Virus record (IMG/VR): IMGVR_UViG_2690316142_000012
Location: 1-4,709 of that record
Direction: 5' to 3' (one strand)
DNA: 4,709 bases
Source: a virus
Lineage: Duplodnaviria; Heunggongvirae; Uroviricota; Caudoviricetes
Shown: in pieces, positions 736-4,709 of the stretch
Numbering within the stretch: position 1 is the first letter of the stretch
Layout of the letters: every line of letters begins with the position of its first letter
Position numbers and translations under genes: made by a program
Notes under the pieces: generated by a model
The model's input: only the letters and a program-made list of their open reading frames with translations
What the model was told of the DNA's origin: nothing
The model's database searches: none

Positions 736-1179
736 TTACGATGTATACTCTTTAATTGCTTGCAATCTCTTTTCACGTTCGTTGCTTTGTTGGGCCTTTT
801 CCAGTTGGCTGTATATGTACTCTTCATCTTTACCCGTGAGTATTGAGCCGGAGAGCAGACGATTAATAACTATACGTTTAATTTCTGGGTAATCTTTGGT
901 TTTATCGAGTATGGACAATATGTGGTCACTGCTAAGAATTATCCCACTCCATGAGTCTAAATAGCTCTTAAAAATCACAATCATAAACACACCGAAAAGC
1001 ATTATGATGATTGTTACCACATTAATGCTAAACGTTGATATAAAGGTATACGCGGCCACACCAATTATTGCTAAACAGAGACATAAATAAATGAAACCGA
1101 TTTTGTTGCGTTGCTTTTTTTCTGCACGATCATGATCATCTATGATTTCCAGTATCTTTTCTGGGATTAGTTGAGTCAT
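736..1179 (-). CDS. small membrane protein (147 aa), two predicted transmembrane helices, ~77-aa soluble C-terminal domain; function unknown
   Basis: ATG at 1177..1179 (minus) preceded by AAGGAA with ~5-nt spacing; two hydrophobic stretches (IGFIYLCLCLAIIGVAAYTFI and VVTIIIMLFGVFMIVIF) separated by a short loop; charged N- and C-termini. Confidence 0.7.
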   Translation of the reverse strand: MTQLIPEKILEIIDDHDRAEKKQRNKIGFIYLCLCLAIIGVAAYTFISTFSINVVTIIIMLFGVFMIVIFKSYLDSWSGIILSSDHILSILDKTKDYPEIKRIVINRLLSGSILTGKDEEYIYSQLEKAQQSNEREKRLQAIKEYTS

Positions 1180-2159: not shown

Positions 2160-2221
2160 AACCGCTCGCCGCAGTCCAGCGACCGAGCATAGCGAGCGAG
2201 TGACGAGGAAGCGGAAGATCC
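2160..2221. other. segment resembling ColE1/pMB1-type plasmid backbone sequence (origin-proximal region of pBR322/pUC)
   Basis: From memory of the pUC/pBR322 sequence (ACCGCTCGCCGCAGCCGAACGACCGAGCGCAGCGAGTCAGTGAGCGAGGAAGCGGAAGA): the window has ACCGCTCGCCGCAG..CGACCGAGC..AGCGAG..CGAGGAAGCGGAAGA in the same order; roughly 80-85 percent identity by eye, not computed. Confidence 0.45.
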
Positions 2222-2250
2222 ACCGTTGCCAGGAGAAAAGCAGGTACGCA

Positions 2251-2571
2251 CTATGCGTTCTGCCCTAGTGATGCTTTCACAAACCACGCAGCCTGAACTA
2301 TTACGCCATGAATCCAGCGCAAATCGGCATCACGATTTTCTTTTTTCATTTTTTCGCCACTTAAAGCCTTGCTTACGTGACTTTTTACCAGATTTTCGTG
2401 TAATTCTTTTGCTTCTTCAATTGTGAAACCACCAGGCAAATTTGGCGCTTCTGCTTCCAGCGATGCCAGTGCGATTTCATAAGCCCGACGCTCAATATTG
2501 TCTCGGACGTCCAGGCTGCCTATACGCTCTCTGATTTCTTTAATCAGTTCTTTGTCGGTTAAAGTGGTCAT
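2251..2571 (-). CDS. hypothetical prophage early-region protein (106 aa); N-terminal module shared with the 136-aa protein
   Basis: ATG overlaps the stop of the upstream 171-aa gene (ATGA); AAGGAA RBS 7 nt upstream; shares the motif IALASLEAEA and a 19-nt nucleotide identity with gene 3385..3795. Confidence 0.7.
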   Translation of the reverse strand: MTTLTDKELIKEIRERIGSLDVRDNIERRAYEIALASLEAEAPNLPGGFTIEEAKELHENLVKSHVSKALSGEKMKKENRDADLRWIHGVIVQAAWFVKASLGQNA

Positions 2572-3083
2572 GCTGCGTTTCCTTCTTTCTTATTAACAAT
2601 TACACCGTCATATATTTCATTAAGGTGTCCTCTTAGCTCCATGCGCCTTAATGCAGATAACATGTAATCGCATTCAACCTGCTTATTCCCAGTAAATGGC
2701 TTATCGTCAGGATTACCCCAACAGCAATTACCCCTGGGCCATCCATGTACTTTCCGTACTCTTCCGTTAACAACGTGAAGTAATCCCCAGCCGGGAGGTA
2801 AATCCTCAACTGAAATAATTTCCGGCTCACTAATAAAGAATCGCCAGTCGCCCATGCCAAGTGAGGGATTTTTACGGAAACGCTTTTTTCTATCTGCCAA
2901 CAAGTCAGCACGAGAACACTTCGCCTCTATCAGGCATGATGCTGAATTTCTGAATCCCATAGCATCTGGCTGTTCTCCGGTACTGGTTACAGCAACAAAG
3001 CGGTCATGAAAGCAAACCTTGAACCCGTTGCGCTTAAGGAACTTGTACGCAATCTGACAGAGTTCGTGGTGTGTTAACGCCAT
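2568..3083 (-). CDS. PD-(D/E)xK nuclease-like protein (171 aa), possibly MmcB-like; tentative
   Basis: Start at ATG 3081..3083 (MALTHHELCQ) preceded by GGGAAAGGAAAGTGAT; motif order E...PD(AMGF)...(L)IEAK(CS) matches the PD-(D/E)xK nuclease core; the ORF-track N-terminal extension (MGKESD) is probably not translated. Confidence 0.7.
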   Translation of the reverse strand: MALTHHELCQIAYKFLKRNGFKVCFHDRFVAVTSTGEQPDAMGFRNSASCLIEAKCSRADLLADRKKRFRKNPSLGMGDWRFFISEPEIISVEDLPPGWGLLHVVNGRVRKVHGWPRGNCCWGNPDDKPFTGNKQVECDYMLSALRRMELRGHLNEIYDGVIVNKKEGNAA

Positions 3084-3119
3084 ATCACTTTCCTTTCCCA
3101 TGTTGTCATGTGTTAGTCC

Positions 3120-3383
3120 TTATCCTGCTGTGCTTTCAACTGATGAGGGGAATAAAATCTTTTCATCAAATCCGGCATTCATATCATGGACAGCAACACA
3201 CCAATCCATCGACGAACGATTATCAAGAGCCTCCATGATTTCATCCATGCGGCGCAGGTCATACAGGTAAATGCTTTTATCGCCAATGGTGTAAAAACCA
3301 ATTTTTTTCGGTGATGGGCAGCGATCAAGAACGTCCTGTAATTCGTTCAACCATGCCCGTTCTTTTTTTGTTAAAGTTGCCAT
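3120..3383 (-). CDS. hypothetical prophage early-region protein (87 aa)
   Basis: Start at ATG 3381..3383 (MATLTKKERAW) preceded by AAAGGAGAGTGAT; the upstream gene's stop lies 1 nt before this ATG (TGA-T-ATG); the longer ORF in the track is an out-of-frame read-through of the upstream gene's 3' end. Confidence 0.7.
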   Translation of the reverse strand: MATLTKKERAWLNELQDVLDRCPSPKKIGFYTIGDKSIYLYDLRRMDEIMEALDNRSSMDWCVAVHDMNAGFDEKILFPSSVESTAG

Positions 3384-3396
3384 ATCACTCTCCTTT
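3242..3396. repeat. 155-bp exact direct repeat, copy 1 (identical to 4555..4709)
   Basis: Base-by-base identity read from the sequence; covers the RBS and first 47 codons of the 87-aa gene; left boundary is sharp (3241 T versus 4554 A). Confidence 0.95.
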
Positions 3397-3795
3397 CCCA
3401 TGAAGCATAGCGGCGCGGCAGGCGTTCCAGCCTGTAGCGTATGCAGCCGCTTTGCTGCTGCCTTCAACTGGCGCATCCTGCCAATACATTTCATCCGGCA
3501 CTACCGGCGCTGGCAAGGCTGCGTGATAGTAGAGTGGCATAGTTTTGTACAGTGGTTCGCCAGGACTTCCGTCAACCTGATTCCATTCTTCAACCCAGGC
3601 ATCAACAACCGCTTTGCTGGTTGATACATGTTCTTCTGAATCTACATTTTGTCCTGATATACAGAACATAACTGCCTCTGCTTCCAGCGATGCCAGAGCA
3701 ATTCGTGCCAGTTCCATTTGTTCGCCACGAGTAAGTCCGTTATCAAGCGGATTTTTAATGAATAATTTGATACGTTCTTTGGTTATAGCGTTCAT
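3385..3795 (-). CDS. hypothetical prophage early-region protein (136 aa); N-terminal module shared with the 106-aa protein
   Basis: Start at ATG 3793..3795 (MNAITKERIK) preceded by AAGGAGAGTGAG; the upstream 203-aa gene's stop lies 1 nt before it (TGA-G-ATG); contains ELARIALASLEAEA. Confidence 0.7.
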   Translation of the reverse strand: MNAITKERIKLFIKNPLDNGLTRGEQMELARIALASLEAEAVMFCISGQNVDSEEHVSTSKAVVDAWVEEWNQVDGSPGEPLYKTMPLYYHAALPAPVVPDEMYWQDAPVEGSSKAAAYATGWNACRAAMLHGKGE

Positions 3796-3796
3796 C

Positions 3797-4408
3797 TCAC
3801 TCTCCTTTGATGCGAATGCCAGTAGCGCGGATTGCATCGATGACTTCAGAAACTTTGTATGCCATTACCGTTTGGTAATCATCGTGAAAATCTGTTCGAT
3901 GAAGCATGCTGCTACGTTCCGGGAGCGATATTTCCCGAGCATCCAGTTCCTTAACGCGCTCCTCCAGTTCGTAGACCCTGCATTGTTCTCTATCATCAAT
4001 CAGATATAACCCAAGACATTCGCTTTCTACCCAACCGCCAAAATCATGATCGTAACGCTCACATGAAAACTCACCGTCACCGTCCTTTGTTGGAATGGTG
4101 TAACTATCTAATGGGCCACCATATGTCGGCACATTTCCCAATGTTGGATGCTCAATCCACATGAAAAATGCACGTCCGGTTATTGGGCAAATATCTGGCC
4201 GCCATTGGTTACGAACAGCCTTGGTTTCGGATAATTCTTCAGCGTGTTGTTTTACTTCCTCAAGCTCGTATCGCTTCAGGTTTGCGATATTTGATAAATT
4301 CAGCGCCAGTACAGCCAGGTCATAAACCTCTTCGGCAGTGACATCGCTGTTCAGTCCCATTTCATGGCGATATATGATTTTTTCTACTCGTTGTTTTGTG
4401 ATCGTCAT
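3797..4408 (-). CDS. hypothetical prophage early-region protein (203 aa); possibly ead/Ea22-like, unverified
   Basis: Longest ORF in the operon; preferred start ATG at 4406..4408 (MTITKQRVEK) with GGAG 11 nt upstream; ORF track extends to a TTG at 4432; ends KGE-stop within the RBS of the next gene. Confidence 0.65.
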   Translation of the reverse strand: MTITKQRVEKIIYRHEMGLNSDVTAEEVYDLAVLALNLSNIANLKRYELEEVKQHAEELSETKAVRNQWRPDICPITGRAFFMWIEHPTLGNVPTYGGPLDSYTIPTKDGDGEFSCERYDHDFGGWVESECLGLYLIDDREQCRVYELEERVKELDAREISLPERSSMLHRTDFHDDYQTVMAYKVSEVIDAIRATGIRIKGE

Positions 4409-4516
4409 TTTTCTCTTCACTCCGATATACAAGGATTACCACACCCCCTCTGCTGATTGCGCGAGCTGGATCCCCTGGTTCCATGCCGTCAATTCCGAAG
4501 GCTTCGGAAAACGCAT

Positions 4517-4696
4517 TCATTGCCTTCTGGCGTTCATCCTGCTTACGGCGTTTACATCCATGCGGCGCAGGTCATACAGGTAAATGCTTTTATCGCCAAT
4601 GGTGTAAAAACCAATTTTTTTCGGTGATGGGCAGCGATCAAGAACGTCCTGTAATTCGTTCAACCATGCCCGTTCTTTTTTTGTTAAAGTTGCCAT
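4517..4696 (-). pseudogene. truncated chimeric duplicate of the 87-aa gene (first 47 codons identical, then 12 unrelated codons and a stop; 59 aa)
   Basis: Lies in copy 2 of the 155-bp repeat; translation from ATG 4694..4696 gives MATLTKKERAWLNELQDVLDRCPSPKKIGFYTIGDKSIYLYDLRRMD then VNAVSRMNARRQ-stop; the preceding 4698..4709 encodes a KGE-stop gene end as at 3385 and 3797. Confidence 0.4.
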
Positions 4697-4709
4697 ATCA
4701 CTCTCCTTT
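4555..4709. repeat. 155-bp exact direct repeat, copy 2 (identical to 3242..3396); continues to the window edge
   Basis: Offset of exactly 1313 bp from copy 1; true extent unknown because the window ends. Confidence 0.95.

Follow-up and report, generated by a model that had tools for sequence, protein, structure and literature searches.

A KGE-stop-N-ATG junction of ead/Ea22-like genes in an IncI2 plasmid array and in lambdoid phages as a probable recombination linker

Translational coupling by termination-reinitiation is known from gene pairs in which few nucleotides separate stop and start, textbook cases being trpE-trpD and, in the nin region of lambda, genes with ATGA overlaps. The junction described here resembles such pairs in that its arrangement is TGA-N-ATG, in that the final codons of the upstream ORF include a Shine-Dalgarno sequence and in its predicted location in a single transcription unit, but it differs in having a strong, unstructured ribosome-binding site, so that dependence on upstream translation is not implied. 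Short conserved boundary sequences have also been described as mediators of mosaicism (Susskind and Botstein 1978; Clark 2001; both as cited in PMC3029335). The lambdoid linker sequences treated there (Susskind and Botstein 1978; Clark et al. 2001, on HK620) are alike in that a short boundary sequence lies between unrelated flanks, that mosaic joints coincide with it and that it is located in the non-essential early-left region, and HK620 itself has this exact junction between hkaG and hkaF. The junction described here differs from them because it is mostly coding sequence, namely the C-terminal tail of the upstream protein, and because IncI2 conjugative plasmids, and probably also P7, a phage-plasmid of the P1 type, have it. 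Rad52-like recombinases drive mosaicism by relaxed recombination on short diverged homology, and the exchanges among prophages, defective prophages and phages that they catalyze are flanked by short homology, as here (De Paepe et al. 2014, PMC3945230). That homology extends over hundreds of bp with 67-98% identity, whereas here a single island of 16-30 nt is known from sequence. The gene cassettes of integrons are alike in having single small genes set between copies of a recurring sequence, in many orders, but unlike attC the repeat here is only 16-30 nt long and is part of coding sequence and ribosome-binding site. An attC boundary was rejected because there is no imperfect palindrome or hairpin, folding is no better than in shuffles and there is no integrase in the plasmid neighbourhood. 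The junction fits the model of conserved boundary sequences put forward for lambdoid phages and is one example of it, a recombination linker of an already understood kind, and it reveals no new mechanism. Its value is that it gives a clean and countable case for the old dispute on phage mosaicism, namely, homology-guided exchange at short linkers versus random joining followed by selection.

Junction copies and their gene neighbours in the window

The window, that is, the whole stretch of 4,709 nt that was analysed, is part of an IncI2 conjugative plasmid with an array of lambda exo-xis-type (ead/Ea22-like) genes. A prophage origin, as assumed in the initial annotation, was not borne out because the array sits on this plasmid. 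The genes and junctions with which we are mainly concerned are as follows.

2568..3083, minus strand: 171-aa gene (phrog_9263/631), like P7 upf89.0 in length and position
3120..3383, minus strand: 87-aa gene (phrog_1714)
3385..3795, minus strand: 136-aa ead/Ea22-like gene, C-terminal end MLHGKGE-stop
3797..4408, minus strand: 203-aa gene, N-terminus Ea22-like, C-terminal end GIRIKGE-stop
3793..3822, minus strand: junction 1, end of the 203-aa gene (...GGC ATT CGC ATC AAA GGA GAG TGA), spacer G, ATG of the 136-aa Ea22-like gene
3381..3402, minus strand: junction 2, end of the 136-aa gene (...CAT GGG AAA GGA GAG TGA), spacer T, ATG of the 87-aa gene
4694..4709, minus strand: junction 4, incomplete at the window edge; last codons of a 149-aa Ea22-like gene (...NIRIKGE-TGA-T), then the start of the 87-aa gene in a truncated copy (ATG)

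The genes in question all lie on the minus strand, where AAAGGARAGTGA-N-ATG occurs four times in the window (at 3081, 3381, 3793 and 4694) against 0.04 occurrences expected. Exact matches to AAAGGARAGTGANATG are at 3081-3096, 3381-3396, 3793-3808 and 4694-4709, and four copies were reached in none of 200 shuffles. The initial annotation had placed these four copies correctly. At three of the sites an upstream gene ends in ...KGE-TGA and is followed by one base and the next ATG. The 203-aa gene ends ...GIRIKGE-TGA (3799-3797) and the ATG of the 136-aa gene is at 3795-3793, while the 136-aa gene ends ...MLHGKGE-TGA (3387-3385) and the ATG of the 87-aa gene is at 3383-3381. The site at 4694-4709 is a real junction as well, because in full-length IncI2 contigs (L207-L210) the 149-aa gene ends ...NIRIKGE-TGA there. 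The 171-aa gene ends at a boundary of a different type, where its stop and the start that follows form a shared ATGA (2568-2571).

Alignment of the three copies other than that at 4694 showed that they have only 16-24 nt in common and that their flanks are unrelated. Of the 16 positions in the core, 12 are under functional constraint (ribosome-binding site, stop and start) and selection could therefore maintain part of the identity. The repeat is best explained as a conserved 3' terminus that ead/Ea22-like early genes have in lambdoid phages, (GGC ATT CGC ATC or CAT GGG) AAA GGA GAG TGA, one base, ATG(GC). The likeness between the starts of the 87-aa and 171-aa genes (MATLT and MALT) that had been pointed out does exist (ATGGCAACTTTAACA against ATGGCG and, after a gap of three positions, TTAACA) but only ATGGC is general, and about 12 of the 20 downstream classes have an M-A start.

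The upstream genes belong to the ead/Ea22-like family and have their terminal sequence in common with lambda ea22. The 136-aa and 106-aa proteins and the N-terminus of the 203-aa protein match phrog_5117/60/660/3323, and homologous loci carry the ead/Ea22-like annotation. The PHROGs matches of the minus-strand genes are to families of unknown function only; the five minus-strand genes have no Pfam, NCBIfam or PADLOC match, and PDB sequence searches gave no match. The single-sequence AlphaFold model of the 171-aa protein was unusable (pLDDT 44).

AAGGAG lies 6 nt 5' of the ATG, and at both complete junctions the stop is 1 nt from the start (TGA-N-ATG at 3385-3387/3381-3383 and 3797-3799/3793-3795), a proximity typical of termination-reinitiation gene pairs. 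A consensus scan of the minus strand from 2572 to 4709 gave no promoter-like or terminator-like sites between the genes. A repeat search of the window showed no inverted repeat at the junctions, and no known RNA was found in the window with Rfam. Folding of RNA around three junctions was no more stable than that of shuffles (z 0.2-1.4), and coupling by unmasking of a structured ribosome-binding site was dropped for this reason. Since no structure hides the ribosome-binding site, ribosomes could equally well initiate there independently. As read from the DNA, the anatomy is consistent with translational coupling of the gene pairs at the junctions.

A relic copy and a terminal duplication

The two remaining copies, at 3081 and at 4694, lie among the following features.

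3081..3101, minus strand: relic junction, ATGGGAAAGGAAAGTGAT, final five codons plus stop from a deleted gene of the ...HGKGE-stop type, then ATG of the 171-aa gene
3102..3119, minus strand: scar of the deleted gene, GGACTAACAC, spacer and ribosome-binding site, with ATGACAAC (3109-3102) as its first 2.7 codons
3074..3109, minus strand: 11-codon mini-ORF MTTWERKVIWR-stop, read directly from the sequence
4552..4709, minus strand: direct duplicate of 3239-3396, 158 nt, 99% identity

The region 3081-3102, 5' of the 171-aa gene, is a 24-nt near-copy of the junction with one mismatch, and the ribosome-binding site of the relic has a G>A change. In the list of ORFs in the window no long ORF ends at this copy. 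The initial annotation had regarded it as an orphan, which is right in that no gene ends there, but homologous loci show that the copy is the scar of a deleted Ea22-like gene. In four loci the 171-aa gene comes after a 146-aa Ea22-like gene ending ...HGKGE-stop. Among 80 homologues of the 171-aa gene, 76 are preceded by a gene ending in the junction, only 3 have the relic and 1 is ambiguous. ATGACAAC is the start of the Ea22-like gene that is found 3' of the 87-aa gene in other loci, where the same TAAGGACTAACACATGACAAC runs on as TTTCACCGACAAAGAA... (MTTFTDKELIKEI), and this places the deletion joint between 3102 and 3101. By this comparison the copy at 3081 is a relic, left by a deletion that took the Ea22-like gene from codon 3 as far as its last five codons. 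The mini-ORF starts at the ATG of the deleted gene, crosses the relic in a different frame and terminates 7 nt into the 171-aa gene.

As part of the 158-nt duplication, the copy at 4694 cannot be counted as independent. The duplicate contains the junction plus codons 1-47 of the 87-aa gene, and it is fused to the 3' remnant of a DUF4752 gene (59-aa ORF, 4517-4696). This arrangement is present in five independent assemblies, and an assembly artefact was ruled out because four longer contigs of other assemblies (13-62 kb, three being about 60 kb) have the same arrangement in their interior. The partial copy recorded earlier at 4694 is thus a true junction but one that belongs to a duplication of 3239-3396. 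For annotation, the junction explains the ORF calls that are over-extended at the N-terminus, the ORFs of 124, 150 and 177 aa being really 87, 136 and 171 aa, and also the orphan ribosome-binding-site-like relics and the truncated duplicates in the region.

Gene partners, breakpoints and carriers

A motif-based survey of about 430 related loci gave 160 distinct contexts in which 27 upstream and 20 downstream sequence classes form 64 combinations, and 15 upstream classes have at least two downstream partners; the loci were gathered through the genes of this window and therefore these partner counts are biased towards those genes. Spacing and register are exactly alike in the 64 combinations, and copies whose downstream genes are unrelated frequently show 99-100% identity over the 150 nt on the upstream side. 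One tract of 16-30 nt joins at least 64 different gene pairs with flanks that are identical up to the tract; the related phages and plasmids concerned are those of E. coli. When the last 12 residues of the upstream proteins were removed, the 48 C-terminal residues that were left formed 18 unrelated families; the downstream proteins formed 19 families. Of 603 pairs from different classes, 390 have a common tract of exactly 16 nt, and in others it is as long as 55 nt.

Samples were also drawn by gene and not by motif, namely, 80 homologues each of the 87-aa and 171-aa genes (protein identity at least 98%) and 78 homologues of the 203-aa gene. The junction is 5' of about 52 of the 80 homologues of the 87-aa gene, as it is in the 76 homologues of the 171-aa gene, and the upstream 3' ends in front of these two genes are many and unrelated (...GIRIKGE, ...MLHGKGE, ...HLRTKGE). 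Exactly the upstream tail of junction 2 precedes 25 of the 80 homologues of the 87-aa gene, and others are joined through the same core to unrelated upstream genes. About 47 of the 78 homologues of the 203-aa gene end in the junction, which is followed by about 10 different downstream gene starts.

BLAST segment ends fall within junctions in 34% of cases, while junctions occupy 4.1% of the region, and recurrent segment ends are at 3096, 3102/3105, 3401 and 3822. Together with flanks that are 99-100% identical up to the junction, this bears out the proposal that module breakpoints in relatives coincide with the junctions. As with lambdoid linkers, a short boundary sequence is conserved while the flanks on one or both sides are unrelated. 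Breakpoints occur inside genes as well (3703, 2438-2450 and 4260-4267). A second recurrent breakpoint is the conserved intragenic segment of Ea22-like genes given here.

3674..3703, minus strand: conserved intragenic segment of Ea22-like genes coding for ...LASLEAEA, with a second copy at 2447-2476

There are also illegitimate joints in the window, namely, the relic at 3101/3102 and the fusion of the 87-aa gene to DUF4752 at about 4552. The spacer base (T or G) was compared with flank class for placement of the crossover, and the two conditional entropies were nearly equal (H(N|D) 0.41, H(N|U) 0.45).

The junction is conserved outside this locus, as the initial annotation had presumed. Lambda ea22 ends GGCATTCGCATCAAAGGAGAGTGA, which is the same 24-30-nt tail and is identical at synonymous sites, and the tail of hkaG, which the same junction links to hkaF in HK620, is likewise identical at synonymous sites. 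Hundreds of records of Stx and other lambdoid phages and prophages contain it. P7 upf88.3 and upf89.0 have the same 1-nt spacing and, judged from this spacing, are probably linked by the same sequence. The location is the lambdoid early, non-essential region (the 3' end of lambda ea22, hkaG/hkaF of HK620 and the prophage array between int/xis and the repressor gene), and the array in the window is a plasmid copy of such an early-region array. Prophages, IncI2 conjugative plasmids and probably phage-plasmids thus have pools of accessory genes that are connected through one and the same linker.

Proposed explanation and alternatives

We consider it likely that the junction is the 3' end of ead/Ea22-like genes doing double duty, carrying expression signals and serving as a recombination linker between gene pairs. 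One stretch of DNA provides three signals, namely, the K-G-E codons with the Shine-Dalgarno sequence AAGGAG, the TGA stop and the next start one base further on. If the genes are in one leftward transcription unit, a terminating ribosome would be positioned to reinitiate, and the accessible ribosome-binding site would also allow fresh initiation. Recombination within the 16-30-nt tract among co-resident prophages, phage-plasmids and plasmids would swap neighbours in perfect register, and both reading frames and the ribosome-binding site would therefore be kept in every recombinant. The likely agents are phage single-strand-annealing recombinases, and the tract, being copied at each exchange, would stay uniform. 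The reading of the junction as a recombination linker is well supported. The sequences show the anatomy of the junction, its conservation, its numerous partner combinations and the breakpoints that coincide with it; we infer homology-guided exchange, as against illegitimate joining with selection, and coupled translation.

The minimal pairing length is 23-27 bp for Red-beta and 31-34 bp for RecA (PMC3945230). The identical tract is often only 16-18 nt, which is less than the minimum for either, and only the 24-30-nt version, ...GGCATTCGCATCAAAGGAGAGTGATATGGC or ...GGCATTCGCATC..., attains a published minimum, that of Red-beta (PMC3945230). The idea that the junction acts as microhomology for exchange of modules holds in that breakpoints coincide with it, but its core is often below these published lengths.

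A bolder reading, which we regard as doubtful, is that the KGE-TGA-N-ATG tract is a self-propagating universal cassette linker, integron-like but without a dedicated integrase, that moves single small accessory genes in register among lambdoid prophages, P1/P7-type phage-plasmids and IncI2 plasmids. Some genes, namely, a 64-95-aa ...HLRTKGE gene and a 73-aa ...AAGKGD gene, have the linker at both ends. The plasmid array sits divergent from nikA/relaxase and its position may be the plasmid leading region. Anti-defence genes are known to cluster in plasmid leading regions.

Convergence together with illegitimate recombination (the Hendrix model) would have genes joined at random and selection retain the joints at boundaries, a 16-nt ribosome-binding site, stop and start having few good solutions. 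The illegitimate scars in the window and a core that is below the minimal pairing length (PMC3945230) are in keeping with this, and distant homologues of the 136-aa gene use other tails in which a ribosome-binding site and a stop/start overlap are embedded (CAGGAGGTGAATCAATGA, GGAGGCGAAATGATG and GGAGGTGAGTAATG). An identical 18-mer is found at 58 sites in species-representative genomes, mostly 5' of an ORF and mostly in unrelated phyla (about 50), and only about 8 are members of the family (Escherichia, Enterobacter, and contaminant contigs labelled Segatella, Collinsella and Xanthomonas); since most of these matches are chance or convergent ribosome-binding sites, the scan says little on taxonomic range. 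We nevertheless think convergence unlikely. The 24-30-nt tail (GGCATTCGCATC...) is identical past the constrained positions, and its choice among synonymous codons does not differ between more than 10 C-terminal domains that are unrelated to one another, when by our own count about 3,456 codings are possible for GIRIKGE. The exact spacing and register in the 64 combinations and the flank identity of 99-100% up to the junction argue against it too, as does the dominance of one sequence type, to which about 60 of the 82 stop-N-ATG boundaries in related loci belong.

It is very improbable that the nucleotide repeat is a by-product of protein homology, with a functional C-terminal peptide (...AGIRIKGE or ...MLxGKGE) under selection. 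Many of the upstream proteins are in one mosaic superfamily (ead/Ea22-like), full-length single-linkage clustering gives only 3 groups, the C-terminal region of lambda Ea22 is a stable dimeric domain (PMC8614690) and, as read from the alignment, the two upstream tails in the window are weakly alike beyond the junction (A-x-R-A......KGE). Against this, the 48 residues that precede the tail are of 18 unrelated families, the tail is conserved at synonymous sites, and conservation runs beyond the stop codon into the spacer and ATGGC. In addition, the tail is present on small proteins that are not Ea22-like (the 64-95-aa ...HLRTKGE and 73-aa ...AAGKGD proteins), and the relic at 3081 retains the sequence though it is no longer translated in that frame. 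That the repeats are a mere local duplication without wider meaning is a reading already refuted and has next to no probability, because only the copy at 4694 is part of the 158-nt duplication of 3239-3396 while the other three share 16-24 nt between unrelated flanks and the junction is found with other partners in hundreds of other genomes.

The IncI2 backbone in which this array is located carries blaCTX-M-55. This backbone is also a carrier of mcr-1.

Copies of the junction in the gene array

Every gene relevant to the junction is on the minus strand, and in the 5' to 3' order of that strand the array reads as follows.

4517-4696, minus strand: truncated ORF, 59 aa, first in the array
3797-4408, minus strand: 203-aa gene, second
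3385-3795, minus strand: ead/Ea22-like gene, 136 aa, third
3120-3383, minus strand: 87-aa gene, fourth
2568-3083, minus strand: 171-aa gene, fifth
2251-2571, minus strand: Ea22-like gene, 106 aa, sixth

The gene starts were set by comparison with related loci and from the gene calls in longer contigs; the automatic ORF list over-extends three of the genes, to 150, 124 and 177 aa. The array is closed by a bidirectional terminator (2125-2145) that it has in common with the convergent hicA-hicB pair on the plus strand.

Exact matches to AAAGGARAGTGANATG were found on the minus strand at 3081, 3381, 3793 and 4694, against an expectation of 0.04, and four matches were reached in none of 200 shuffles. 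This confirms the observation in the initial annotation that one junction is reused at successive gene boundaries, and its coordinates and description are right with two qualifications, namely, that the copy at 4694 is duplicated and that the copy at 3081 is a scar. The 203-aa gene terminates in ...GIRIKGE-TGA at 3793 and the 136-aa gene in ...MLHGKGE-TGA at 3381; in both cases the next ATG is set off from the stop by a single base, with AAGGAG 6 nt ahead of it. The copies in the window have 16-24 nt in common and their flanks are unrelated.

The copy at 4694 is not an independent occurrence because it is inside a 158-nt direct duplication (4552-4709 = 3239-3396), in which the junction and codons 1-47 of the 87-aa gene are fused to a remnant of a DUF4752 gene. 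The truncated 87-aa gene copy and the 3' DUF4752 remnant together make up the 59-aa ORF, and the same fusion was seen in five independent assemblies of IncI2-type plasmids. An assembly artefact was ruled out, since four longer contigs (13-62 kb) of other assemblies have the arrangement in their interior. This copy still looks like a functional junction, because a 149-aa Ea22-like gene terminates in ...NIRIKGE-TGA there in full-length contigs.

At 3081 the copy is present as had been described, without a gene ending there, and comparison with other loci identifies it as a deletion scar. In those loci TAAGGACTAACAC-ATGACAACTTTCACCGAC... comes directly after the 87-aa gene and begins an Ea22-like gene (MTTFTDKELIKEI...). 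In the window this start is broken off after ATGACAAC and fused straight to ATGGGAAAGGAAAGTGAT, the final five codons and stop of a ...HGKGE*-type gene. Among 80 homologues of the 171-aa gene, an intact upstream gene terminates in the junction in 76, just 3 have this relic, and one is ambiguous. An 11-codon mini-ORF, MTTWERKVIWR* (3109-3074, minus strand), is a product of the deletion and crosses the relic in another frame. It begins at the ATG and RBS of the deleted Ea22-like gene and ends 7 nt into the 171-aa gene, to whose start it could still bring ribosomes.

Partners and breakpoints at the junction

The junction was sampled by downstream gene, which is independent of the motif, by upstream gene, and by the motif itself. 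For the 87-aa gene, 80 homologues from viral contigs (at least 99% protein identity) were compared: about 52 have AAAGGAGAGTGA-N-ATG directly upstream and 27 have the alternative junction TATAAGGAAAACTGATATG; the upstream 3' ends at the junction are unrelated (...MLHGKGE, several ...GIRIKGE classes, and ...HLRTKGE). All 80 homologues of the 171-aa gene have the junction core, and at the 76 gene-ending junctions there are at least 8 unrelated upstream sequences. About 47 of 78 homologues of the 203-aa gene terminate in ...GIRIKGE-TGA-N-ATG, after which come the starts of about 10 different genes, and 27 have a variant, ...IRIKGGE, with a TAATG overlap. With the 136-aa gene, whose 78 homologues are mostly distant, the KGE junction was found in about 21, the others having different tails with an embedded RBS and a stop-start overlap.

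The motif survey covered about 430 loci with 160 distinct 316-nt contexts, and these fall into 27 upstream and 20 downstream sequence classes joined in 64 combinations; 15 upstream and 9 downstream classes have two or more partners. Copies with unrelated downstream genes often agree at 99-100% over the upstream 150 nt. At the protein level, the C-terminal 48 residues of the upstream proteins (last 12 trimmed) belong to 18 unrelated families and the downstream proteins to 19. In 390 of 603 pairs of different classes the common tract is no longer than the 16-nt core, in others it is up to 55 nt long, and on the downstream side it usually extends through ATGGC, giving 18 nt. Breakpoints do coincide with the junctions: 34% of local BLAST segment ends lie within 6 nt of the three junctions, which make up 4.1% of the region. 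About 60 of the 82 distinct stop-N-ATG boundaries in the first locus set are of this type.

Other boundaries also recur in the region (related loci L046-L124 and L351-L430): a GCRGC-ATGA overlap from the 171-aa gene to the next (window 2568-2571), TAAGGA(G/C)TAACAC-ATGAC from the 87-aa gene to an Ea22-like gene, TATAAGGAAAAC-TGA-T-ATG, and AAAGGAGGTGAG-TAATG (...IRIKGGE*).

An ea22-family tail as a probable exchange linker

Conservation of the junction extends well outside this locus. The ea22 gene of lambda terminates in the identical tail, GCTGGCATTCGCATCAAAGGAGAGTGAGATCGG, coding for ...AGIRIKGE*. The junction after it reads AAAGGAGAGTGAGATCGG (1020-1060 of the lambda locus L271; lambda 29,820-29,870), the downstream start is now ATC, and ea8.5 lies beyond about 190 nt of non-coding DNA, which suggests that lambda once had a gene there that was lost or decayed. 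In HK620 the junction joins hkaG, which is ead/Ea22-like, to hkaF. It is probably present in P7 too, judged by the equal one-base spacing between upf88.3 (ead/Ea22-like) and upf89.0 (171 aa). Most upstream partners are mosaic ead/Ea22-like proteins with a conserved 5' end (MTTxTxKE...LASLEAEA), variable bodies and a common 3' tail, and a few small genes that are not Ea22-like have the junction at both ends.

We consider it likely that the junction is the tail of the ea22 family serving as a linker for homology-guided exchange, by which one tract would be copied again and again. The exchange-linker part is strongly supported. Homology-guided exchange is favoured because the register is identical in all 64 combinations, the flanks are identical right to the edge of the tract, the synonymous sites of the 7-codon tail are identical on more than 10 unrelated domains, and conservation extends beyond the stop codon. 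Its main weakness is length. Red-beta needs a pairing segment of at least 23-27 bp and RecA one of at least 31-34 bp, and exchange on short diverged homology is mostly the work of Rad52-like recombinases of phages (PMC3945230). The 24-30-nt ...GGCATTCGCATCAAAGGAGAGTGATATGGC version satisfies the Red-beta minimum whereas the bare 16-18-nt core falls short, and this leaves room for illegitimate joining followed by selection for an optimal arrangement of RBS, stop and start. The identical 18-mer occurs convergently about 50 times in unrelated phyla, and this, together with the illegitimate scars within the window itself, lends that alternative some support. Selection on a functional C-terminal peptide, which would explain the tail at the protein level alone, is unlikely: the residues ahead of the tail belong to unrelated families, its synonymous sites are conserved too, and the conservation runs past the stop codon.

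An established proposal holds that lambdoid phages exchange modules homologously through short conserved boundary sequences (Susskind & Botstein 1978; Clark et al. 2001, both as cited in PMC3029335), and HK620, the phage of Clark et al., has this exact junction. Four points of quantity or context may be new: how many partners the junction has, that the element is the 3' tail of the ea22 family, that it occurs in IncI2 conjugative plasmids and probably P7, and that the orphan copy at 3081 is explained as a deletion scar.

The RBS, spacing, stop and start of the junction have the layout known from classical gene pairs with tight coupling. The coding strand has no promoter-like or terminator-like site between array genes, and 101-nt windows around the junctions do not fold more stably than shuffles (z 0.2 to 1.4), the RBS being unpaired. 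Given this layout and the unpaired RBS, reinitiation is possible and independent initiation is equally plausible; translational coupling is a plausible reading of the anatomy.

Genomic setting

The reading in the initial annotation is partly supported: the breakpoints and the conservation strongly support the exchange linker, coupling is plausible, and the source is a plasmid and not a prophage. The window is the 4,709-bp NCBI contig CXBN01000221.1, reversed, and the backbone is that of an IncI2 conjugative plasmid (MOBP relaxase, MPF_T, pHN1122-1-like). The array, made up of ea22-like genes of the lambda exo-xis type, is divergent from nikA and the relaxase gene and comes after a ParA/CbiA-like gene (3650-8446 of the full-length IncI2 contig L207, equal to window 2251-4709 plus upstream DNA; also the related loci L205 and L270), a site that may be the leading region. 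Of 5,426 complete E. coli genomes, 2,757 contain homologous DNA, for the most part within prophages, as do 310 phage records (Stx phages and P7 among them) and 919 plasmid records; none of these genomes or records covers 80% or more of 2200-4709. Prophages have the array between int/xis and the immunity region, the site of the exo-xis region of lambda, which is variable and mosaic downstream of ea22 (PMC8614690).

The long form in the window has 1,428 nt in place of 85 nt in the common short IncI2 form, and some of the additional sequence matches an E. coli chromosomal prophage at 99-100% identity. The replacement ends 16 nt inside an Ea22-like ORF and at the LASLEAEA-coding segment at 3703; both ends fall in conserved 5' parts of Ea22-like genes, and this segment is a second recurrent breakpoint.

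The junction is also present in short contigs labelled Segatella copri MAG, Collinsella sp. MAG and Xanthomonas pisi (L215, L224, L261, L262). Their flanks are E. coli-prophage-type sequences as found at the junction in viral-contig loci, and they are probably binning or assembly contaminants.

The 171-aa protein (phrog_9263/631), which matches P7 upf89.0 in length and position, has no matches in Pfam, NCBIfam, PADLOC or PDB, and its single-sequence AlphaFold model is unusable (pLDDT 44). A PD...(D/E)xK-like motif (EQPDAMGF...LIEAKCS) suggests a nuclease of the restriction-endonuclease fold. A 48-nt operator-like repeat occurs three times (608-655, 1209-1256 and 1348-1395), with an inverted repeat at 1357-1375/1384-1402 and the internal palindromes CTTTAC-N3-GTAAAG and ACACTGTAAAGA...TCTTTACAGTGT. 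These repeats flank a 147-aa membrane-protein gene (736-1179, minus strand), sit upstream of hicA (1476), and could serve divergent promoters as shared operators for a repressor or HicB.
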